Source: an uncultured Planctomycetales bacterium (GTDB lineage: Bacteria > Omnitrophota > Gorgyraeia > Zapsychrales > JANLHA01). Taken from it: a stretch of DNA of 55,738 bases. Positions 31,275 to 44,369 of this stretch are shown here, piece after piece. The position numbers and the translations under genes were made by a program. The notes beneath the pieces were generated by a model, which saw only the letters and a list, made by a program, of their open reading frames with translations, was not told the DNA's origin and searched no databases. Within the stretch, counting starts at the first letter, position 1. Every line of letters begins with the position of its first letter. The stretch is from positions 1 to 55,738 of the forward strand of contig CAZQQI010000012.1 of assembly GCA_964595465.1 (NCBI GenBank), read 5' to 3'.

Positions 31275-31370
31275 TGCTATTTTTTCTTTTTTTCTGGCGG
31301 GCGGCCCGTCGAGATGATATTCTCACAAAGAGAGCATAACGATCATTTTTCGATCATAAAGGAGAGACGA

Positions 31371-32453
31371 ATGGAGATCCGCAGATTATTTAAAACCATG
31401 GTTGAGAGGGAGGCCTCTGATCTTTTTTTAAGTGTGAATTCCGTCCCCCGGGCGCGTATCAACGGCATTGTTCAGCCGATCGCGGAAGATAAGGTCACTC
31501 AGGAAGATATGCGCGCATTGCTCAAGATCATGTTTGATCAGGAACATACCAGGCGCAAGGCCTATGAGGAAAGCAAAGGCGTGGATTTCATTTTTGTAGC
31601 TGAAGATATCGGGCGTTTCCGCATCAATGTCTTTGTCCAGCGCGGTTCACCGGCTTTGGTGGCCCGTCATGTGCGTTCGGAAATCCGCTCCTTTAAAGAG
31701 CTGCATCTTCCCGTCGATGTCCTGACTAAATTCTGTCAGGAATGCAACGGCCTGGTTCTGATGTGCGGGCCCGCAGGCAGCGGAAAATCCACGACCATCG
31801 CCACCATGCTGGAAAACATCAATCAGACCCAGCAAAAGCATATCGTGACGATCGAAGATCCCATCGAATTTTTATTTACGCATAAACAGAGCATGATCAA
31901 TCAGCGTGAATTAGATGTGGATGTCATGTCTTACGCCGAGGCGCTCAAACATGTGACCCAGCAAAGCCCCGATATTATCTATATCGGCAATATCCGCGAT
32001 GGCGAGACCATGCGCGCAGCTATTAATGCCACAGAGCTGGGCACCTTTGTGGTCAGCACGTTTCATACCATTAACGCGGTGCAGACCATTACCCGTATGG
32101 TCAACTTTTTTCCTCCTTATCTGCATGAAGAAGTGCTGATGCAGCTGTCCACCATTTTGAAAGGGATCATATCCCTGCGCCTTCTGCCTTTAAAAGACGG
32201 CTCCGGCCGGGTGCCCGCCTACGAAACTGTTGTGGTCACGCCGACCATTTCCCGTTTGATCCGCGAAGGTAAGATCACCGAGATCCAGCAGTTCATTGAT
32301 GAAGGAGAGCTCTTCGGCATGCAGTCTTTTAAAAAATCTCTGGTTTCTCTGGTGCGGGCGGGACTGGTCGATCAGGCTGAGGCCAAGCATCGCGCCGACA
32401 GCCGGGATGAATTTGACCTGGAAATGAAGGGCATCCGCCAATTTCTGGATTGA
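31371..32453 (+). CDS. PilT/PilU family type IV pilus ATPase with atypical Walker B
   Basis: ASDL, GRFRINVF, Walker A GPAGSGKST, TIEDPIE, INQRE, GNIRD (normally GExRD), STFHT, GMQS. Confidence 0.9.
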   Translation: MEIRRLFKTMVEREASDLFLSVNSVPRARINGIVQPIAEDKVTQEDMRALLKIMFDQEHTRRKAYEESKGVDFIFVAEDIGRFRINVFVQRGSPALVARHVRSEIRSFKELHLPVDVLTKFCQECNGLVLMCGPAGSGKSTTIATMLENINQTQQKHIVTIEDPIEFLFTHKQSMINQRELDVDVMSYAEALKHVTQQSPDIIYIGNIRDGETMRAAINATELGTFVVSTFHTINAVQTITRMVNFFPPYLHEEVLMQLSTILKGIISLRLLPLKDGSGRVPAYETVVVTPTISRLIREGKITEIQQFIDEGELFGMQSFKKSLVSLVRAGLVDQAEAKHRADSRDEFDLEMKGIRQFLD

Positions 32454-32663: not shown

Positions 32664-35600
32664 ATGGCCGGGATACGATCATCTCATAGCATTTTGAAGA
32701 AAGCGCTCTCTGCAGTTATCTGCATCTGTTTTCTTTCATCCGTGGTGCTTCCACCGCAGACCGCGGGTGCGCAGGTCTTACCGACCCTGCCGATGCCCGG
32801 GGCGATGCTTAACCCCACACCGGGCTATCTGCCGGCCCTGATCAAAGGGATCACGGTGCATCCGGAAAATCCGCTGGAATTCGATTTTATCATTGATCCG
32901 GGACAGGACGGCCTGCGGGGTGAGGCCCTGCGTACTGAGGCTGACCGCATGATCCGCTACTTTTTGGCGTCATTGACCGTTCCCGAAGATCAGATGTGGG
33001 TCAACCTGTCCCCGGAAGAGCAGGACCGTATTATTTCGGACCATTTCGGCCGGACCGCTATGGGGATGGACATGCTGGCGCAGGACTATCTGCTTAAGCA
33101 GCTGACCGCGAGTCTGATGTACCCGGAAGAGGAATTGGGGAAGGAATTCTGGCAGCGCGTGCATAAGCGGGCGCAGAAAGAGTTCGGCACGAGCGATATC
33201 CCGGTGGACACCTTCAACAAGGTCTGGATCGTGCCGCAGGACGCCTCGGTGTATGTCAAAGACAACCATGCCTTTATCATCAAGAGCCGGATGGACGTCA
33301 TGCTGGAGCAGGATTATGAGGCTCAGCAGGCCGGCCGGACAGCTCAGGAGAGTGCCTCTGTTAAGAATATTGATGACCAGATCATCCGCGAGATCATCAT
33401 TCCCGAGATCAAAAAAGAGATCAATGAAGGCAAGACCTTCGCCCGTCTGCGTCAGATGTATCAGGCCATGGTGCTGGCGGCCTGGTACAAGCTGAACCTG
33501 CGCGAGTCTTTATTGGGAAAGATCTATGTGGACCGCAATAAGACCGCTGGGGTGGAGACCAAGACCCCGGAGGAAAAGGAAAAGATCTACGAGCAGTATC
33601 TCAAGGCCTTCAAGCAGGGGGTCTACAACTATATTAAGGAAGAGCATGATCCGGCAACGGGCAAGACCATTCCGCGTAAATATTTCAGCGGGGGATATTC
33701 CAATACCGGCCCGGACCAGGCGCAGTTGAGTGATAAAGTGCGTCAGCAAGTGGTGCGATTTCCGAACGCGACACCGGCGCAGAGGAGTGCGGCGCGCCGT
33801 GCGATCCCTATTGGGGATGATCGCAGCGCGGACGGTCCGGTGGTGGTCCGCGTGGGTCTTCTGGATGATACCCGCGACTCTGCCCAAAAGATAGCCGCAG
33901 AGTCCGCGCGTCTGGCATTTCTGGATCAGACCGATGATCTGGCCATGCTGAGCGGGGAAAAAGGACAGGCGTTCAGATCTGTCTGGAAGAAAATGGGTTC
34001 AAGTTTTCAGAAAGACGGGTCATTTATTAACGGTATGAGCGAGACGTCTTTCAGGCAGCTGATCGCTCAGGCTGTTGAACTGATCCCAGCTGTTGCACGT
34101 GAGGAGAATGAAGCGGCTTTGAGCACTTTGGCAAAAAATTTGAAAAAGGTTTACGATAACGATACTTTGCCCGATGTTCTCAGAGACGGCGCGGAGATGA
34201 TCCGCCGTATGGTGGCCCAGCAGGTTTTGGCCATGCGTGAACAACGACGTAAGACCGCTGAGCAGGCGGAACACGATCCGTCCGACCCCTCCTGGGCCAG
34301 GCTCGCGGCTGAGGCGCAGGAGACAGCGACCACGCCTGAAGAGGCACTGCGCCGCATGTCTGATGAGGCGATGCTTACAGTAGTTGACGCACAAAGAATG
34401 TTCTTTGATTCTGTTCAGGAGTTAGCCAGAGAAAAAGGTTTTTCCTGGGCAAATAAATCTAAAATTGTCGATAAGGTTGCCAGTTATGTGGACGCCGGCA
34501 TGTGGGATCATAATAGGGAGCAGGCGATTAATTTGATTAAAAAGCGTGGCCGCTTTTCTTCTGAGGAGGAAGCGGAAGGTTTTTTTGCTGAAGCGGTTCA
34601 GGCTTATGAGTTGCGAAGGGATGTCAGGGAGCAACTACATGCTAAGATGGGACGGCTAGGGTTGATGGTATCTGAAGATGCGTATAACAAAGTGATCATG
34701 GATGAGCTTTTGCCGAAAGCGATGGACATGGTTCAAAATGGCAGAGATTTCCTGCTGTTAATAACGCAGAATGAAGAAACTGCCCAAGGTGAGTATTTAG
34801 GGACTTTCGATGGGGAATATTCACGTTATTCAACAGGGGTCGGGGAAGGCCGTGCTAATTACGCGAAAGAACTGGTTCAGCCGGCTCAGCTGGCTGTGAT
34901 TGACGGTGGAAAAGTGTATGACCCGGAAGGCTCTGTGCTGCAGGTTTTGCAAACTTTGGATCGTTCACGAAGTGATTCTGCGGAATATCAAAAAGCTAAA
35001 GAAGCACTCCAGGAGTCTCACAAGCCGGATTTTGTCCTGGCGCGCAAGGTACGGAACGAGATACGAGAGAAGGTCCCGCCCAAGACAACTGTTGATATGG
35101 ATAGCGGCGAGGAAATTGAGAACAACAGAGACAGGAATGAAGAATATCACTTAACATCGATCTTGCGAGAAGCCTGGGAGCTGCGTCTTCAAGGGCAGGG
35201 CTTTGATATCCGTTATATGCCGGCCCAGGGTTTCGTGCGCACGGACTACAGCTCGGTCATACAGCAGACTCTTACGTTTACGCAAGAAGTAGAGTCAGAG
35301 CAGTTCCAAGTCGTAAGTAATGGTGAAAAGGTCCAGGACCTGCCCGAAGGGGTGAACCCCGCGGCGCGTACAATCGGTTTAGAAGTCGATAAAAAGTTAG
35401 AAGCGGATCAGGAGGAAGAAGCCGACCGTGCCATGCTGGGCTACGGGCTGAGTTTTCTTTCAGAAAAGGATTGGCGTCAGCTGATCCTGCAGATCGAATT
35501 GCCGCAGGGTGATGAGCAGTCTGTGATGCTGGCGGACAGGACAGTTTTTGTTGGCAGAGGCCTTACGGCTGATGACGTCTCAAGCATATTGGGACGGCTG

Positions 35601-38600
35601 GGTTCTTCCAAAGTCGATCCGGCGAAGGTTCAGCGGATCGTTCTGACGGATTTTGAAAAGCCTGATGCCGTCTTTGAGGCCCTGCATAACACCTTATTTC
35701 TGGATAGACGCGCTATCAGGAGCGGAGGCGATTTGATCGTGGCGGGTGTTTCAGAAAACGTCATGAAACTCGACCGCCAGACATTTTTTGACCTAGTGCG
35801 TGAACATTTCGGCATTAAGCTGTCGATGACGGATGTCTGGAAAGACTCTGAAAAAGGCCGAACCGACCGGGCCATGCTGACCAAACTGGAAATTGCCGCA
35901 CCTACGGCCAAGCAGGTTTTACGTGCGGGGCTTGACCGTTCCGACTGGGATGCACAGGCAGCGGCCGCTGCCGTGATCAGGTTATACGGAGAAGATCCCT
36001 TGTTCCAGTCTTTGCAGAATAAAGCTGAGGACAGGGTTATCAGTTTTTTTCGGCGAGCGAGCCGTGAGTCCGGGGCGATCGTTCTGGCCCTTTTACTCAC
36101 ACCGGAATTCCGCAGCGAACAAGGCGATCGAGTACTCGCGGAGAAGGTGAAATCCATTTTTGAACAGAATGATTTCGAAGCGGCAGCGATCGCAGCGCTT
36201 ACGATGCTGAACCATGACGATATTGAGGCGTTTGATGAGCTTTGGAACCCGGTCGTCGATGTGATCGAAAATTTTCTTAAGGAAAAGGCTTTTGAAACCG
36301 CCGCTATATCCGCGTATGCTGTTTTAACGCATCCCGAGATAGAGGAGTTTGAAAAATTACGCGACCTGGCCTACAGGAAACTGGAAAAGCTGGTGCGCTC
36401 AGATAAAACACTGACCCGCGCCACGGTGCTGTCTGCCGGCGCCCTGCTGGGAAGTGATATCTTTCTGGGAGGCAATTCCCCGTTTTCTCAGGACATGCGT
36501 GAGCGGGCTGTTGATGTGCTTTCCCATGCTGTCGTCAAAGGAGAAGGACGGCCTAACGTCAGGGTCTATGCTTCGGCCATTACAATCTATTTGGTGAATC
36601 AATTAAAAGAAAGCCGTAATGATGCCGCCATGCTGGCCCGCCTGAAGAATGAAGGACATAAGCCCATCATTGATTCGATCGTCCAGGCTGAAACAGATAT
36701 TGAGCAGGGGGATATGATCATGGCGCTGCGGGATGCGGCGCGGGATGCGGAAGATGAAAATATCCGTGCCAAGGCGGTCTATATTTTAAACAAATTGTCG
36801 AATCAATCTGGTATTAATCATATGCTGCATCAAGCCAACCAGAGTTTTCCGGCAATAATGCTGGGAAAACTCAAAGAGGATGTGCCTGATCCTTTTTCAG
36901 TTGATGCTTCTATGCTCAGCGCTGAGGATAGCGAGTGGGAACCGCTGGCAGGGCTTGGCCCGGAAGAACAGAGAGAGGTTGAGACCCTGGTCCGGGGATT
37001 GCTGCCTCCGCAGTCTGATGCCGAAGATGCAGTGCTGGATTTTGTGGGTAAATATCTGCACTCAGAGGACGGGATGTATCCGTTCATGAATGCTTTGCTG
37101 TATTTCTTGAAGGAAAATGATCTGCCCCGTGTCGAAAAGTTTTTGGGCCAGCTCCATGCTTTGGGCATCAAACCGGGAACCGAAGAGGAATCTTCCGATG
37201 AAGCTATCTTGACGGATATTCATTCGAATGCTCGAGTTTCAACATTGACGCCGATTGACGAGACCCGGCCGGTCAAGTTCGGGACCAGCGGGGACCGCGG
37301 CAAGCTCAAGACAGAGGAGAACCCGGACGGGGATTTTAATACGAACCATGTCGCGCGCCTAGCGCAGGGCACGGCTAACTGGTTTAAAAAGGCCCACCCT
37401 GACGGGAAGGTCCTGGTCGGGTATGACCCGCGCCAGGGAAATCCGGAGTTTGCCCGTTTGACCGCGCAGATCATGGCTGCCAACGGGATCCGGGTCAAGA
37501 TCGTGGCGGCCGAGCCGACACCGACGCCGGTCTTGGCCTATCTCGGGGGTTCTGATGCCGAGGTCGAGGGCGTGATCAATTTCACGGCCAGCCATAATCC
37601 TTATACAGATGACGGGATGAAGTTTTCCCCGGGACATGGCGGGGCATCAGATAAAGAGATCACCGACGGGCTGACCGCGGAAGCGAATGCGCTGGATGAA
37701 TATGCGGCCCTGGATTATGACCAGGCCGTCGAAGAAGGCCTCGTTGAGATCGTCACCGCTCAGCAGGCCCGGGACCGATATCTGGACAGGTATTTGATCC
37801 CGAGACTGCAGGAGATTGGGGCCTGGGATGATATTGTCTCTTTTTTGAAAGAGAACGGGGATTTTAAGCTGGTCATCGATGCCATGAACGGGACCGGAGG
37901 GCCGTATATGGATGCGTTGTACAGCCGCATTGCCCAGGCCGTCGGCCGGGCAGATCTTTATGAGATCATTCATGCCATGTCCGACCCTCAGTTCGGTGAG
38001 GTCAATAATGAGCCCAATCCGACCAAAGAAAAAAGCAGGGAAGAACTGGTCCGGCGGGTCAGTGACCTGGGAGGGAAAGCCATGGGCCTTTCGGTCGACG
38101 GGGATGCTGACCGTTTCGGCAATGTGGATGAGAGCGGGGAATTTGTCTCCGCCAATGATATGATCGCCCTGATCGCCTGGTTTTTAAAGAAGGAGATCGG
38201 TCTGGACGGCGCGATCGGCAAGACGGTGGCCACCAGCAATTTTGTCAACGCTGTGGCAGAGGCTTTGAATATCGAGATCGACGAAGAAGGCGTCGGGTTC
38301 AAGCATTTTGTGGCTAATGTTATTAAGAACGGCCGCAAATATTTAGTCGCGGGCGAAGAAAGCGCGCATGTCGCCGTGGGGCCGTTTATGGAATCCTGGG
38401 ATGACGGGATCGTGGTCGGGCTGATGGGGCTGTGGATCAAGGCGCGCACCGGCAAAGGCCTGGTAGAATACCGCGATGAGATTCGGAAGGAATTGAATAT
38501 CAATACCAAGATCGAAACCCTCGGGCTGGGCGAAGGCGATCAGGCTATGAAGGATCAGGTTGTTGCCATGATCGCCTTGACCAATGAACAGCTGGACGCG

Positions 38601-39731
38601 GGGACAGTGTTGGGAGAATTATCGATCGTGAAGCGGTTCAAGGAGCAGGGCAGCGGGGAGGCGATTGACATTATCCGCAAAGACGGCATCAAACTGGTCT
38701 TCGAGGATCAGAGCTGGATCCTTCTGCGTCCCAGCGGGACCCAGCTGGTAACCAAATTTTATGTCGAGAGTATGGGCAATTACGCCGCGGAGCAGGAGGT
38801 GTTAGAGCGGCGGTTTGACCAGCTGCGCGCGATCGGCGAACAGGTCGCGGAAGAAGGCCTGGCCGACGCAGCTATGCTGGCGAAGGCGGCGCAATTGCAA
38901 CAACAGGGCGATGACCTTGCCCGGCGGAAAAACCACCGCGGGGCCTGGCGGGCGTATCAGCAGGCGCGGGAAGTGTTGGAAGGGCTGCCCATGACCAGTG
39001 AAGAGAGGCGGGGGCAGATCACACGTCTGGAAGATAAGGTGAAGCAAGAACGCGCGGCTTTGTCTGTAAGCTGGCGGACCGAGGCCGCAAAATGGCTAAG
39101 ATCACAGAATGTTAAATCCAGATCCGATGCCGCCCGTCAGCAGATAGAGGTCATCATTGACGGCGTTCTGGATCATATCTTTGCGTCCGAAACCTCCCAG
39201 GCAGCGACCGGGATGAACGTCTTAAGGGCTGTGTTCGTTCAAGAAAGCGAGAACATGCCTGCAAAAGATATTCTAAAGAGGTATCTGCGGAATACCGCAG
39301 CCCCGCTGTCGGTCGATGAATTGATTTTCCGTTTTAGGGCTTTGGAAATGGTCGATATTTTGAAGATAAAGCTGAAAGAAAGGGACGAGGCTATGCTTTC
39401 AGCGGATAGGCCGCAACAAGACTCTGCCGAAGCAGAGCCGGTCGGGGGTATTGATTTCAACTCCGATCAGCTGGACCTTAAGGTCAGGCGTGACGGCAGC
39501 GGCGTGCCTCTGCCTATGGACCAGCAGGTGCCGGCGGAGCTGATGCGCATTGACGGGTTTGTGCCGGTCATTATCAATGTGGCCCCGGCGCCCAATCTTC
39601 CTATGATGCTGGGTCTGGCTGACGAGCCGCTGGATGATACCCCCCGCCGTGCGGGCGGGGACCAGCCGGTCATGGACGAGCCCCGCGCCCGGCTGGAAAA
39701 TGTGTCTGTGTTGAAAAATGTGAAAAGTTGA
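32664..39731 (+). CDS. 2355-aa secreted modular protein with D-x-A-M-L-delimited modules, including a phosphoglucomutase/phosphomannomutase module
   Basis: Single open frame; AAAGGA RBS; signal peptide; nine D-x-A-M-L-like motifs; FGTSG.RG, TASHNP, DGDADR, GEES, RPSGT within aa 1517-2067; C-terminal GGIDFN. Confidence 0.9.
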   Translation: MAGIRSSHSILKKALSAVICICFLSSVVLPPQTAGAQVLPTLPMPGAMLNPTPGYLPALIKGITVHPENPLEFDFIIDPGQDGLRGEALRTEADRMIRYFLASLTVPEDQMWVNLSPEEQDRIISDHFGRTAMGMDMLAQDYLLKQLTASLMYPEEELGKEFWQRVHKRAQKEFGTSDIPVDTFNKVWIVPQDASVYVKDNHAFIIKSRMDVMLEQDYEAQQAGRTAQESASVKNIDDQIIREIIIPEIKKEINEGKTFARLRQMYQAMVLAAWYKLNLRESLLGKIYVDRNKTAGVETKTPEEKEKIYEQYLKAFKQGVYNYIKEEHDPATGKTIPRKYFSGGYSNTGPDQAQLSDKVRQQVVRFPNATPAQRSAARRAIPIGDDRSADGPVVVRVGLLDDTRDSAQKIAAESARLAFLDQTDDLAMLSGEKGQAFRSVWKKMGSSFQKDGSFINGMSETSFRQLIAQAVELIPAVAREENEAALSTLAKNLKKVYDNDTLPDVLRDGAEMIRRMVAQQVLAMREQRRKTAEQAEHDPSDPSWARLAAEAQETATTPEEALRRMSDEAMLTVVDAQRMFFDSVQELAREKGFSWANKSKIVDKVASYVDAGMWDHNREQAINLIKKRGRFSSEEEAEGFFAEAVQAYELRRDVREQLHAKMGRLGLMVSEDAYNKVIMDELLPKAMDMVQNGRDFLLLITQNEETAQGEYLGTFDGEYSRYSTGVGEGRANYAKELVQPAQLAVIDGGKVYDPEGSVLQVLQTLDRSRSDSAEYQKAKEALQESHKPDFVLARKVRNEIREKVPPKTTVDMDSGEEIENNRDRNEEYHLTSILREAWELRLQGQGFDIRYMPAQGFVRTDYSSVIQQTLTFTQEVESEQFQVVSNGEKVQDLPEGVNPAARTIGLEVDKKLEADQEEEADRAMLGYGLSFLSEKDWRQLILQIELPQGDEQSVMLADRTVFVGRGLTADDVSSILGRLGSSKVDPAKVQRIVLTDFEKPDAVFEALHNTLFLDRRAIRSGGDLIVAGVSENVMKLDRQTFFDLVREHFGIKLSMTDVWKDSEKGRTDRAMLTKLEIAAPTAKQVLRAGLDRSDWDAQAAAAAVIRLYGEDPLFQSLQNKAEDRVISFFRRASRESGAIVLALLLTPEFRSEQGDRVLAEKVKSIFEQNDFEAAAIAALTMLNHDDIEAFDELWNPVVDVIENFLKEKAFETAAISAYAVLTHPEIEEFEKLRDLAYRKLEKLVRSDKTLTRATVLSAGALLGSDIFLGGNSPFSQDMRERAVDVLSHAVVKGEGRPNVRVYASAITIYLVNQLKESRNDAAMLARLKNEGHKPIIDSIVQAETDIEQGDMIMALRDAARDAEDENIRAKAVYILNKLSNQSGINHMLHQANQSFPAIMLGKLKEDVPDPFSVDASMLSAEDSEWEPLAGLGPEEQREVETLVRGLLPPQSDAEDAVLDFVGKYLHSEDGMYPFMNALLYFLKENDLPRVEKFLGQLHALGIKPGTEEESSDEAILTDIHSNARVSTLTPIDETRPVKFGTSGDRGKLKTEENPDGDFNTNHVARLAQGTANWFKKAHPDGKVLVGYDPRQGNPEFARLTAQIMAANGIRVKIVAAEPTPTPVLAYLGGSDAEVEGVINFTASHNPYTDDGMKFSPGHGGASDKEITDGLTAEANALDEYAALDYDQAVEEGLVEIVTAQQARDRYLDRYLIPRLQEIGAWDDIVSFLKENGDFKLVIDAMNGTGGPYMDALYSRIAQAVGRADLYEIIHAMSDPQFGEVNNEPNPTKEKSREELVRRVSDLGGKAMGLSVDGDADRFGNVDESGEFVSANDMIALIAWFLKKEIGLDGAIGKTVATSNFVNAVAEALNIEIDEEGVGFKHFVANVIKNGRKYLVAGEESAHVAVGPFMESWDDGIVVGLMGLWIKARTGKGLVEYRDEIRKELNINTKIETLGLGEGDQAMKDQVVAMIALTNEQLDAGTVLGELSIVKRFKEQGSGEAIDIIRKDGIKLVFEDQSWILLRPSGTQLVTKFYVESMGNYAAEQEVLERRFDQLRAIGEQVAEEGLADAAMLAKAAQLQQQGDDLARRKNHRGAWRAYQQAREVLEGLPMTSEERRGQITRLEDKVKQERAALSVSWRTEAAKWLRSQNVKSRSDAARQQIEVIIDGVLDHIFASETSQAATGMNVLRAVFVQESENMPAKDILKRYLRNTAAPLSVDELIFRFRALEMVDILKIKLKERDEAMLSADRPQQDSAEAEPVGGIDFNSDQLDLKVRRDGSGVPLPMDQQVPAELMRIDGFVPVIINVAPAPNLPMMLGLADEPLDDTPRRAGGDQPVMDEPRARLENVSVLKNVKS

Positions 39732-40074: not shown

Positions 40075-41167
40075 ATGTTCGAAGAAATCAAAGATAAAGC
40101 CCGCCTTTTCCGCCAGAAACTCTCGCAACTCAGGGGGTTTCTTTGACATTGCCGGCAAGACAGCTCAGATAAAAAAACTGCAGGAGACCATGAGCCAGCC
40201 CGGGTTTTGGGATGATCCGGACGCTGCCAACCGCATTCTGCAGGAATTGAAATATCTCCGTGGGGTGGTCGATCCGTTTGAATCTCTATCCCGGAAGGTC
40301 GCGGATATGGACGAGCTGGCGGATATCTGCAGCGAGGATGAAGAGTCTCTGCAGGAGCTGGCCGAAGATTTTTCCGGACTTGACCGCCAGATCGAAGCGC
40401 TCGAGACCCAGTCTCTGCTCAGCGGACCGCATGATAAAAACAATGTGATCCTGAGTATTAATGCCGGTGCCGGCGGAACCGAGTCCTGTGACTGGGCCAG
40501 TATGCTCTTGCGTATGTATACCCGCTGGGCGGAAAATCATGATTATAAAGTTAACCTGGTCGATATGCTGCACGGAGAAGAGGCCGGGGTCAAAAGCGCG
40601 ACGCTGAATATCGAAGGCAGCATGGCCTACGGTCTGCTGAAGTCTGAAAAAGGCGTTCACCGCCTGGTGCGGATCTCTCCTTTTGATTCCAATAAGCGCC
40701 GCCATACATCTTTCGCTTCGGTCGATGTGCTTCCTGAGATCGAAGAGGATATTGAAGTTGAGATCAGCAGCGACGATCTGCGTATCGATATTTTCCGTTC
40801 TTCCGGGCCCGGAGGGCAGAGCGTCAACACCACAGATTCCGCGGTACGCATGACCCATATTCCTACGGGGATCGTGGTCCAGTGCCAGAATGAGCGCTCG
40901 CAGCTGCAGAACAGGACCATGGCCATGAAGGTGCTGAAGTCGCGTCTGTATGAAAAGAAGCTGAAAGAACAGGAAGAAGCACTGGCTAAAGAGCACGGCC
41001 AGAAGCAGAAGATCGAATGGGGGAGTCAGATCCGTTCCTATGTGATGCACCCGTATTCTATGGTCAAGGACCACCGCACAGACGCCGAGACCGGCAATGT
41101 CGCCGCGGTTATGGACGGAGAGCTGGCATTATTCATTGACGCGTTTTTAAGGTGGCAGCCGGAATAA
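40075..41167 (+). CDS. prfB: peptide chain release factor 2 (programmed +1 frameshift at 40141-40147)
   Basis: ATG40075 reads 23 codons to AGGGGG-TTT-CTT-TGA-C; the +1 frame joins the ORF with SPF and GGQ motifs. Confidence 0.97.
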
Positions 41168-41333: not shown

Positions 41334-44300
41334 ATGTTTGATTTTTTGATCAGGGGGTTCGCGGTAAAACGTGCTCAGCGGTATATCGACCGGCTGGAGC
41401 CGGCGGTCAACCTGCATGTGCCTCAGCATCTTCCTCTTCCTTCGGTGGGGACTTTGAAACGCATGGCCTCGACTGCGGCTGAAATTAACGGCATGGAGGA
41501 GCGCATAGCGTCGCTGACCGACGAACAGCTTAAGGCCAAGACTGAGGAGTTCCGCCGCCGCTATCAGGAGGCGGTGAGAGAGCAGCAGGTTGCCTTGAAA
41601 CAGGCCGAAGAGGCTTATGAGGATTCCGAAAGCAACGCGGACCGTGAAAATATCATGCTGCGCATTGAGCGGGCGGAAGAGAATATGAAAAAGGCCAAGC
41701 AGGGCGCCTTGAGTGCCATCCTGCCGGAGGCCTTTGCGGTTGTGCGCGAGGCCGGTAAGCGGATCCTGGGGATGCGGCATTATGATATCCAGCTGGTCGG
41801 GGGCATGGTCCTGCATGAAGGGTCGATCGCTGAAATGGCTACGGGAGAAGGGAAGACCCTGGTGGCGACACTGCCGGTGTATCTTAACGCCTTGACCGGC
41901 GAAGGGGTTCATGTGGTCACGGTTAACGATTATCTGGCGGAACGGGACCAGGAATGGATGGGGCGTATTTACCGATTTCTGGGATTGTCCGTCGGAGTGA
42001 TCCTGCATGCTATGACACCGCCGGAGCGGCAGGAAGCCTACGGCTGCGACATCACCTACGGGACGAATAATGAGTTCGGGTTTGATTATCTGCGCGATAA
42101 TATGGTGAGTTTCAAAGACGATATGGTGCAGCGCCCGCATCATTTCGCGGTGATCGATGAGGTCGACAGTATTCTGATCGATGAAGCGCGTACGCCTTTG
42201 ATCATTTCCGGACCGGCCGAGGCTTCGACCGGGACCTATTTTCAGGCTAATGAGATCGCCCGCACCCTGCGGGGGGTTTATATTTCAGAAAGCGACGAGA
42301 TCGACGCCAAGGCGAGGGGAGAAGAGCTCAGCGACCTGTCTAAAGGCTACGACTATGTGGCCGACGAAAAATCCAAATCCATTTCTTTGACAGATGAGGG
42401 GGAGGAGCGCGTGGCGCAGGCCTTCGGGATCGAGAACCTGCACGATATGGCCACGGTGGAGTACCGCCATCATATTCTGCAGGCGCTGAAGGCGCGGGAA
42501 TTTTTCAAACGCGATGTGGATTATGTGGTGCGCGAAGGCCAGGTCATTATTGTCGATGAGTTTACAGGACGCATGATGCCCGGGCGCCGCTGGTCCGACG
42601 GTCTGCATCAGGCGGTCGAGGCGAAAGAGGGGATCAAGATCGAACGCGAGAACCAGACCCTGGCGACCATCACCTTTCAGAATTATTTCCGTATGTATGA
42701 AAAGCTTTCCGGCATGACCGGGACCGCCTACACTGAGGCCGGCGAGTTCAAGCAGATCTATGAATTGGAGACAGTGGTTTTGCCGACCAATAAGCCGCTT
42801 CAGCGCGCCAACCTCAACGACCTGATCTATATGACCATACAGGAGAAGTATCAGGCCGTGGTGGAGGACATCGCCGAATGTTATGAGCAGGGCCGTCCGG
42901 TTCTGGTCGGGACGGTTTCGATCGAAAAATCTGAGATCCTGTCCGAGCTGCTGAAGCAGCGCGGCATCCCTCATCAGGTCCTGAACGCCAAGTATCATGA
43001 GCGCGAAGCGCAGATCGTGGCCCAGGCCGGGCGCTACCGGGCGATCACCATAGCTACCAATATGGCCGGCCGGGGAACGGATATTGTTCTGGGCGGAAAC
43101 GCGGAATTCATGGCGAATTCTCTTGCTGAAGAACGGCGCGGGGAAGAGGACAGCGATCAGGCGCACGCAGGACGCGTGGAGCAGTTTCTTTCAGATTTTC
43201 AGAAGCAGGTCAAAAAAGAACATGAGCAGGTCGTTCAGGCCGGGGGACTGCACGTGATCGGTACTGAGCGTCATGAATCCCGGCGCATCGACAATCAGCT
43301 GCGCGGGCGTTCCGGACGGCAGGGGGACCCCGGTTCATCGCGTTTTTATGTGGCCCTGGAAGATGATCTTATGCGCCTGTTCGGTATGGACCGTCTGCGG
43401 AATATGATGAACTCCCTGGGGGCGGAGGCCGGAGAGGCGATTGAGCATCCCTTAGTCAGCCGCTCGTTGGAGATCGCGCAGAAACGGGTCGAGACCTTCA
43501 ATTTTGAGATCCGTAAACAGCTGATCGAATATGATAATGTCATGAATAAGCAGCGCGAAGCGGTTTACGGTCTGCGCCGCAGTATTCTGGAAAGCCGCAA
43601 TGTGAAGGACCGGACCCTCGAGATCGTCGAGGATGTTGCCGACAGGATGGTCGAGCAGTATCTTTACGGCGGATCCGCGGAAGCGGAATGGGATTTCGAC
43701 GGATTGCTTACGGCGTTTAAGAACCGGTTTCATCTGGACCTTTCTGCTGACCGCGATTCTTGGCAGGAAAAGGGGTACGACGAGATCCGTGACGCTGTCC
43801 GGGCGCGAATGCTGCAGTTTTACGAACATCGTGAAAAAGAGAATACTCCGGAAAATATGCGGCGTCTGGAAAAGATGCTGCTGCTGAACACCATTGACGC
43901 GAAATGGAAAGACCACCTTTATGCCATGGACCAGCTGAAAGGCGGAGTGGGTCTGCGTGCTTACGGACAGCGTGATCCGCTGATCGAGTATAAGCGCGAA
44001 GGCTTTCAGATGTTTGAAGAGATGTTCGTCCGCATTTATGAAGAGGTCGCTGAGATGATCTTTAAAATTCAGGCCGTTCCCTCCGGCGCTGAACGTCCCC
44101 GCGGCGTGTTTTCGTCCCTGCCGCAGAATCTGGTCCATAAGGATTTTTCTACAGTCGACAGTGTGCAGAAACAGGCCCGTCAGCAGGGACAGCCCCCGGC
44201 GCAGTCAACTCATCCCGGGCAGAGCGCGCGTCAGGCCCAGGATCCTGATGTTCCGCACGGTGAGGTCCCTAAGCCCGCGCCGGTCCGCCGTGATGGGGAT

Positions 44301-44369
44301 AAGGTCGGCCGCAATGATCCCTGCCCCTGCGGCAGCGGGAAAAAATATAAAAAATGTTGCGGACGATGA
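41334..44369 (+). CDS. secA: preprotein translocase subunit SecA
   Basis: [59 protein letters not shown] motif [18 protein letters not shown]. Confidence 0.98.

Follow-up and report, generated by a model that had tools for sequence, protein, structure and literature searches.

The stretch of DNA analysed here, called the window below, comprises 55,738 nucleotides of contig CAZQQI010000012.1 (assembly GCA_964595465.1) from an uncultured bacterium of the phylum Omnitrophota. A forward-strand gene at positions 32664 to 39731 encodes a protein of 2,355 residues, P0001, in which the short peptide D-x-A-M-L recurs between unrelated modules. The peptide genuinely delimits modules, with selection acting on the amino acids themselves, both in P0001 and in hundreds of Omnitrophota relatives. 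Its consensus is a hexapeptide, D-x-[AS]-M-[LIVM]-[small], located in linkers. It may serve as a recognition site specific to each lineage, with proteolytic processing as the likeliest purpose, a reading to which we give a probability of about 0.45.

The proteins that carry the delimiter share one layout. A signal peptide is followed by an N-terminal domain of about 310 residues (the N-handle), a variable cargo made up mostly of central-metabolism enzymes, and a C-terminal domain of about 65 residues (the C-handle). A preliminary description, made from the sequence of the window alone, had proposed the delimiter and overlooked both handles, six paralogs in the same genome and a second delimiter, SSPV, used by other lineages.

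The recurring peptide in P0001 and its family

The exact sequence D-x-A-M-L (D.AML) is found seven times in P0001, where composition predicts 0.048 occurrences, and 2,000 shuffles of the protein gave a mean of 0.051 and a maximum of 2. Across all six-frame open reading frames (ORFs) of at least 80 residues in the 2.05-Mb genome (G000; 1,393,864 residues) it occurs 21 times, with 7 copies in ORF 32664-39731, 4 in three paralogs and 3 in one frame of contig C4. The enrichment extends to the family: 149 homologs (233,460 residues) have 119 copies against 2.49 expected, and 60 longer members, taken as an independent set, have 82 against 2.84. An unbiased four-letter scan of 255 middle regions (498,411 residues) ranked D.AML first, with 198 copies against 5.4 expected in 71 proteins. 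Taken together, the counts in the protein, the genome, the homologs, the independent set and the middle regions rule out a chance origin.

All ten peptides first listed for P0001 lie at the residues and nucleotides given for them, and the intervening block sizes of 142, 354, 147, 252, 94, 98, 556 and 173 residues follow from these positions. The blocks had been called mutually dissimilar, and they are: the best pairwise BLASTP E-value among the ten is 0.21, so that a repeat unit is ruled out as well. Codons vary synonymously across the sites, as had been noted (GAT/GAC; GCC/GCG/GCT; CTG/CTT/CTC/TTG), and the constraint is therefore on the peptide. The features of the gene are listed below, with the confidence of an AlphaFold2 (AF2) model (predicted local distance difference test, pLDDT) where it bears on a site. 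The slash in the signal peptide marks the predicted cut.

32664..39731, forward strand: coding sequence of family member P0001, 2,355 residues
32664..32774, forward strand: signal-peptide-like N-terminus, residues 1-37 (basic residues, hydrophobic core, PP...AGA/Q)
32775..33695, forward strand: conserved N-terminal handle domain, residues 38-344, ending ...RKYFSGG; AF2 block-mean pLDDT mostly 60-92 (range 51-92)
33714..33728, forward strand: DQAQL, residue 351, a weak delimiter copy 7 residues past the N-terminal domain; linker with pLDDT below 50
33936..33950, forward strand: DLAML, residue 425; AF2 confidence climbs here from below 50 to 69-79
34362..34376, forward strand: DEAML, residue 567; within a long predicted helix, pLDDT 54-70
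35424..35438, forward strand: DRAML, residue 921
35865..35879, forward strand: DRAML, residue 1068; centre of the peptide used in the complex prediction
36621..36635, forward strand: DAAML, residue 1320; degenerate in homolog P0107
36903..36917, forward strand: DASML, residue 1414; pLDDT 26-30; not kept in P0107
37197..37211, forward strand: DEAIL, residue 1512, N-terminal border of the phosphoglucomutase module; aligns with DAAML of P0107 and lies at the natural N-terminus of a solved phosphoglucomutase
37275..38813, forward strand: phosphoglucomutase module, residues 1538-2050 (Pfam PGM_PMM I-IV), from Pfam and alignment to the PDB; AF2 pLDDT mostly above 90
38865..38879, forward strand: DAAML, residue 2068, C-terminal border of the phosphoglucomutase module; aligns with DSSML of P0107
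39384..39398, forward strand: DEAML, residue 2241, 20 residues upstream of the C-handle; the same spot is filled in many homologs
39444..39641, forward strand: conserved C-terminal handle domain, residues 2261-2326, GGIDFN...PMMLGL, followed by an acidic tail

The shape of the motif is well defined. In the 149 homologs D.AMI, D.AMV and D.SML are likewise enriched and E.AML is not, and M is strongly favoured at its position (D.AML 119 against D.AVL 10, D.AIL 9 and D.AFL 2). A logo of 179 sites has unconserved flanks save for a small sixth residue (A/S/G/T, 70%) and, after it, a mild preference for acidic residues. Within a protein, the sites are more uniform at positions 2, 3 and 5 than 1,000 shuffles ever produced. 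The weak copy at residue 351 has a full counterpart, DEAML, at the equivalent spot of paralog C41. In the AF2 model a short helix is predicted to begin at the D of DLAML 425 and of DEAIL 1512, where confidence is rising, and DAAML 2068 and DEAML 567 fall within long, moderately confident helices. Little weight attaches to the low value at DASML 1414, since the first ~43 residues of that query were aligned to unrelated columns of the N-handle (alignment A2).

The protein was first described as an exported precursor. Its N-terminus is a predicted Sec-type signal peptide that would be cut by signal peptidase at A-x-A/Q, the 'AQ' at its end is kept across the family alignment, and the signal-peptide region alone holds hydrophobic windows above 1.4 in the whole protein. 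Because the N-terminus resembles a Sec signal peptide and is the sole hydrophobic segment, we infer export, and to this extent the precursor claim stands. About ten residues past the predicted cut lies PGAML (residues 45-49, 32796-32810), an instance of a P-G-[TAS]-M-[VIL] motif conserved across the family at the mature N-terminus; its core of small residue, M and aliphatic residue resembles the delimiter.

P0001 has the features that define the family, namely the signal peptide, an N-terminal domain that ends in RKYFSGG and a C-terminal GGID[FL]N domain. The N-handle has no match in Pfam or NCBIfam. Its AF2 model (mean pLDDT 63.7) returned 0 matches in the PDB at E<=0.001 by Foldseek, and the profile of its alignment A1 matched, among PDB sequences, only low-complexity stretches of Huntingtin and Mediator. 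In the Atlas it is found in hypothetical Omnitrophota clusters alone, none of them named. The C-handle has no Pfam match and no usable Atlas match. Searched alone, the N-terminal domain hits 8,022 clusters (50% identity), and for 6,231 of these the E-value is 1e-30 or lower. A set of 5.8 billion proteins holds 2,896 proteins of 1,295-4,122 residues and 61 of 4,123-5,000 residues with this domain. The organisms named by the source are Omnitrophica/Omnitrophota, save for two proteins from metagenome-assembled genomes labelled Bathyarchaeia. Of 121 genomes sampled from the phylum, eight carry it, and each of these has between 1 and 19 matches.

A BLASTP search of the ORFs in this genome identified six paralogs of 801-3,539 residues, so the gene is one of seven. 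The first ~350 residues are common to them (44-63% identity), as are the last ~90 in every paralog but C41. Their middles hold NDK with UDP-glucose pyrophosphorylase, an ARMT1-like phosphatase with a PEP-utilising enzyme and HIT, PGK with HATPase, and HEAT repeats. Stand-alone canonical PGK (535 bits) and NDK (122 bits) are also encoded in the genome and score far higher, which marks the fused modules as divergent extra copies. Paralogs and homologs hold 2-9 metabolic families, and P0001 holds the phosphoglucomutase set alone. P0215 and P0222 combine a PEP-utilising enzyme, GAPDH, TPI, PGK and enolase in one polypeptide; P0215 has in addition a weaker match to class II aldolase (29.5 bits, no single stretch passing), which is not listed for P0222. 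Four proteins with the same N-handle, P0215, P0222, P0238 and P0241 (4,100-4,800 residues), cover most of lower glycolysis or NAD synthesis and have 1-4 delimiters each. Precomputed Pfam lists place Peptidase_M48 among the cargo of P0059, P0187 and P0218, and a T9SS-type C-terminal sorting domain (PF18962) in P0121 and P0221.

Module borders and a second delimiter

The delimiters had been said to fall at the edges of recognisable domains. Phosphoglucomutase, at residues 1538-2050, is the one domain that Pfam and NCBIfam recognise in P0001, hence the sole case that can be checked, and there the claim holds: DEAIL 1512 and DAAML 2068 bracket the module. It has the four-domain PGM_PMM I-IV architecture of the alpha-D-phosphohexomutase superfamily, with domains I, II and III over the Pfam cut-offs and domain IV at 19.4 bits against a cut-off of 23.1. 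Its translation includes TASHNP, DGDADR, GEESAH and RPSGT, which we take to be the catalytic phosphoserine, metal-binding, sugar and phosphate loops of phosphoglucomutases; these signatures appear intact. Residues 1529-2049 match the solved phosphoglucomutase 2z0f end to end (chain positions 16-514 of 524), and the delimiter brackets match its natural termini. The AF2 block-mean pLDDT flanking the core is 37 at DEAIL 1512 and 72-65 at DAAML 2068, and exceeds 90 in the core. Delimiters flank a phosphoglucomutase module in four proteins whose mutual identity in the module is 25-42%, and in P0107 (42% identity) both brackets are kept.

The same placement is found across the family. In ten proteins whose Pfam envelopes cover 31% of the sequence, one of 38 sites lies within an envelope (binomial P = 1.3e-5), so the motif sits outside folded domains. 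Some of the motif-rich homologs, P0006, P0157 and P0033, could not be used for border tests because they are without Pfam domains over the cut-off (P0157 has a sub-threshold RGS match). Homology between middle regions also tends to stop at the motif. In an all-against-all BLASTP of 204 members, 26 of 396 mid-region high-scoring segment pairs (HSPs) span a site, against 87.9 +/- 8.4 in 200 randomisations (minimum 63). HSPs begin just past a site in 38 cases (11.5 expected) and stop just ahead of one in 34 (12.3 expected). Because HSPs are not independent, these figures describe a trend and not a formal test. Shared modules thus tend to end at the motif.

The scan that ranked D.AML first also returned a second peptide, [AS]-S-S-P-[VI], with SSPV counted 115 times against 4.5 expected in 55 proteins. 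It sits at the same junctions as the DxAM-type, including the one before the C-handle. The two handle junctions are the strongest hot spots. Of 211 proteins, 55 have a DxAM-type and 25 an SSPV-type site within 40 residues before the C-handle, so that 80 have one of either type; for the 40 residues after the N-handle the figures are 54, 20 and 74 of 240 proteins. Elsewhere in the middles the density per 40 residues is 0.038 for DxAM and 0.016 for SSPV, which is several-fold below that at the junctions. The two types are nearly exclusive, with DxAM alone in 120 proteins, SSPV alone in 59, both in 22 and neither in 54. The seven paralogs of G000 have 0 SSPV-type sites. The nine paralogs of a related genome, G079, have 0 D.[AS]M sites, and five of them have xSP[VI], four of these just before the C-handle. 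On a tree of the N-terminal domain the motif type switches 15 times, against 26-37 times with shuffled labels.

Possible functions of the motif

The reading that we prefer is that a factor specific to the lineage recognises the motif as a short linear site; this factor would most likely be an endopeptidase acting after export. Such an enzyme would cut near M-L/small and free the cargo from both handles. In motif-rich members such as P0001, the cuts would also part the modules from one another. Processing is preferred because the sites lie at natural enzyme termini, because a small residue follows the aliphatic one, and because the placement would free the cargo from the handles. Cleavage at the motif is a proposal drawn from these patterns.

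Several results weigh against processing. The preliminary description had recognised no protease, and a wider search agrees with it: there is no peptidase domain in the protein itself (Pfam, NCBIfam), none in the 10 ORFs scanned around the gene, none among the recurring neighbours of the paralogs, and no S8 peptidase in the 97%-complete genome. The preliminary description had proposed a protease-cleavage or translocation signal that would release individual cargo proteins. Of this the delimiter itself is supported; against the strict form, in which every cargo is released, there are several observations. P0215 has two sites for at least six enzymes, with none at the TPI-PGK junction, and the strict motif is absent from 112 of 204 relatives. 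Eight paralogs fetched from G057 and two from G091, both related genomes, have no DxAM-type site, and xSP[VI] is found in one of them (TTSPI); the family must therefore be able to do without processing at the motifs. Enolase_N of P0222 contains one site, DNAMI 4254. P0107 has not kept two of four aligned sites, both upstream of the phosphoglucomutase module. AF2 renders the motifs as short or long helices, which fit a docking helix at least equally well.

As candidate proteases the genome encodes two S41 peptidases, and nothing ties either to the motif. A D-x-A sequence cut after the A is like the site at which an S41 peptidase cleaves the photosystem D1 precursor. The N-handle may itself contain a new peptidase fold.

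The main rival is a docking motif that is never cut. On this account the helix-forming linker peptide would be bound by a partner (the protein's own N-handle, a scaffold or a chaperone) and would hold a multi-enzyme complex together, which we regard as possible though on the unlikely side. The helical AF2 models suit it, as do the small-M-aliphatic core of P-G-[TAS]-M-[VIL] at the mature N-terminus, the lineages that dispense with the motif and the many enzymes that stay fused with no motif between them. A complex of the N-handle with a 41-residue peptide around DRAML 1068 was also predicted, with weak support, at a score of 0.57 against 0.00 for the best of three controls; at least 61% of contacts are common to the runs, and the pLDDT of the partner is at least 38. 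In the calibration of this prediction 58 of 80 solved complexes passed the mark, as did 2 of 110 mismatched pairs; scores of 0.60 or less account for only 7 of the 80 solved complexes and for both passing mismatches. A score of 0.57 is thus, according to the tool, more often wrong than right, and no contacts were returned by which to place the motif. The N-handle was considered as the specificity reader and set aside: none of its columns separates DxAM-type from SSPV-type proteins, the best one classifying 84% against a 68% baseline, and this, with the 15 type changes on its tree, makes it an unlikely reader.

A role in linker structure alone, in which each module would require the motif at its start or end as a helix cap or hinge and no dedicated reader would exist, is improbable. 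D is a common helix N-cap residue, and at two sites it opens a predicted short helix. Against this stand the chemically unrelated SSPV, or nothing at all, at the same junctions in other lineages, the preference for M over other hydrophobic residues, the low to moderate AF2 confidence at the sites and the unrelated folds of the modules that follow. Internal translation starts, by which the modules would be made separately from one mRNA at conserved ATG codons, were rejected. M is indeed the most conserved position of the motif, with L as its commonest substitute, but none of the 16 motif ATGs in the seven paralogs has a Shine-Dalgarno-like tetramer 4-16 nucleotides upstream, compared with 31 of the 303 remaining internal ATGs. 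Variants without M are coded by CAG, CAA, ATC and CTT, V (GTG) is not enriched (10 against 6.9 expected), and D and A are kept as amino acids while their codons vary.

Proteolytic processing, if it takes place, would fit into a broader picture that we consider rather doubtful. Some Omnitrophota would export whole stretches of central metabolism (glycolysis, glycogen and sugar-nucleotide synthesis, NAD synthesis) as Sec-dependent polyproteins. The two handles would route them, a dedicated protease would cut at lineage-specific delimiters (D-x-A-M-L, A-S-S-P-V), and the freed enzymes would work outside the cytoplasm, be it in the periplasm or within a host or prey cell attached to the bacterium. 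If it is true that the enzymes act outside the cytoplasm or in a host cell, this would be an unusual metabolic strategy for a small host-dependent bacterium.

Genomic surroundings and known systems

The 10 neighbouring ORFs are of a housekeeping kind: a TPR/YfiO lipoprotein, MurJ, UvrC, a PilT-like ATPase, release factor 2, SecA, Lnt, a response regulator, a lipid A acyltransferase and a Na/Ca exchanger. The PilT-like type II/IV secretion ATPase (31314-32453) lies directly upstream on the same strand, and SecA (41334-44369) lies 1.6 kb downstream. The release factor 2 gene (40075-41167) contains a programmed +1 frameshift site of the classical kind (AGGGGG ... CTT TGA C, 40141-40147), and the listed ORF 40190-41167 is its downstream frame only. 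Among the seven loci of the family in this genome, only a DtxR-type repressor and FeoB recur as neighbours, in both cases upstream of the same two paralogs. At these loci, L009 (G000:C10:3000-11400) and L010 (G000:C17:27000-35300), the repressor and FeoB are accompanied by an outer-membrane protein (OprB-type porin or TonB-dependent receptor), which may be a coincidence. In contig C4 (104,114 bases) one frame is open throughout, for 34,704 residues with both ends open, and therefore belongs to a giant gene (L008 covers C4:19000-25000). Three D.AML sites lie within residues 6818-7947 of this frame (1,130 residues), where a rough composition estimate gives ~0.7, and Pfam recognises nothing in this motif-bearing stretch.

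Metabolic domains on long exported Omnitrophota proteins are a theme of two preprints in the parts available (bioRxiv 10.1101/2023.11.21.568195; 10.64898/2026.06.07.730766). P0001 resembles the long multi-enzyme proteins and Archaeovorins in these parts in coming from the same phylum and in the presence of glycolytic and sugar-metabolism domains, including phosphoglucomutase, on proteins with signal peptides. The available text of the earlier preprint raises cleavage as an open question, with the cleavage points unknown (10.1101/2023.11.21.568195). In the same portions of both preprints we found no mention of the handles, the delimiter or any linker signal. The claim that the delimiter is undescribed is thus upheld within the literature covered: neither a search of the work on Omnitrophota giant proteins nor one by motif string, supplements lying outside both, returned a description of the delimiter, the SSPV alternative or the handles. 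The 'multi-enzyme metabolic cluster' defined in the accessible part of the later preprint has a length threshold far above the 2,355 residues of P0001, and in such proteins many distinct metabolic Pfams tile one polypeptide (10.64898/2026.06.07.730766). P0001 has the phosphoglucomutase set only, and its paralogs and homologs have 2-9 metabolic families. The Archaeovorin and dockerin-type giants run to tens of thousands of residues, with many transmembrane helices and dockerin/TSP3, C39 or SecA-like domains; P0001 is much shorter, has one hydrophobic segment, and contains no dockerin, TSP3, C39 or SecA domain by Pfam. The delimiters matter here as the first concrete candidate cleavage sites, exact and countable, for the open question of whether Omnitrophota multi-enzyme proteins act whole or cut. 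The handles in turn define a very large unannotated family in which cytoplasmic-type enzymes, present as second copies, are attached to an export signal.

Other systems that rely on short peptides are like this one in part. In many members the motif lies 6-30 residues ahead of a conserved C-terminal domain, which recalls sortase LPXTG, exosortase PEP-CTERM and the C-terminal domain of T9SS substrates. In contrast to sortase and exosortase substrates, there is no C-terminal transmembrane helix, the tail after the C-handle is acidic and not basic, and no Pfam sorting domain matches P0001. Unlike a sortase-type signal, the motif is found again at internal positions and past the N-handle.

The MARTX toxins offer another parallel, being single exported polypeptides with unrelated functional modules in series. 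A built-in cysteine protease domain (CPD) releases their effectors by cuts in linkers after Leu, ahead of a small residue, and this specificity resembles the M-L followed by A/S/G/T seen here. P0001 differs from them in that it has no RTX repeats, CPD or other peptidase domain (Pfam/NCBIfam, E<=0.1), and in a predicted Sec-type N-terminal signal in place of a C-terminal type 1 secretion signal. The family's cargo consists of ordinary central-metabolism enzymes and not toxins, and its cleavage is a proposal. Viral polyproteins processed by 3C/3C-like and NIa-type proteases share with it a short peptide with a small residue that recurs at the borders of unrelated domains; in Omnitrophota the flavour of this peptide varies by lineage. 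They differ in that no encoded protease is recognised here, that the protein is cellular and, by its signal peptide, exported, and that the motif is absent from many enzyme borders and from whole lineages. By analogy, P0001 would work most like a polyprotein or an effector array.

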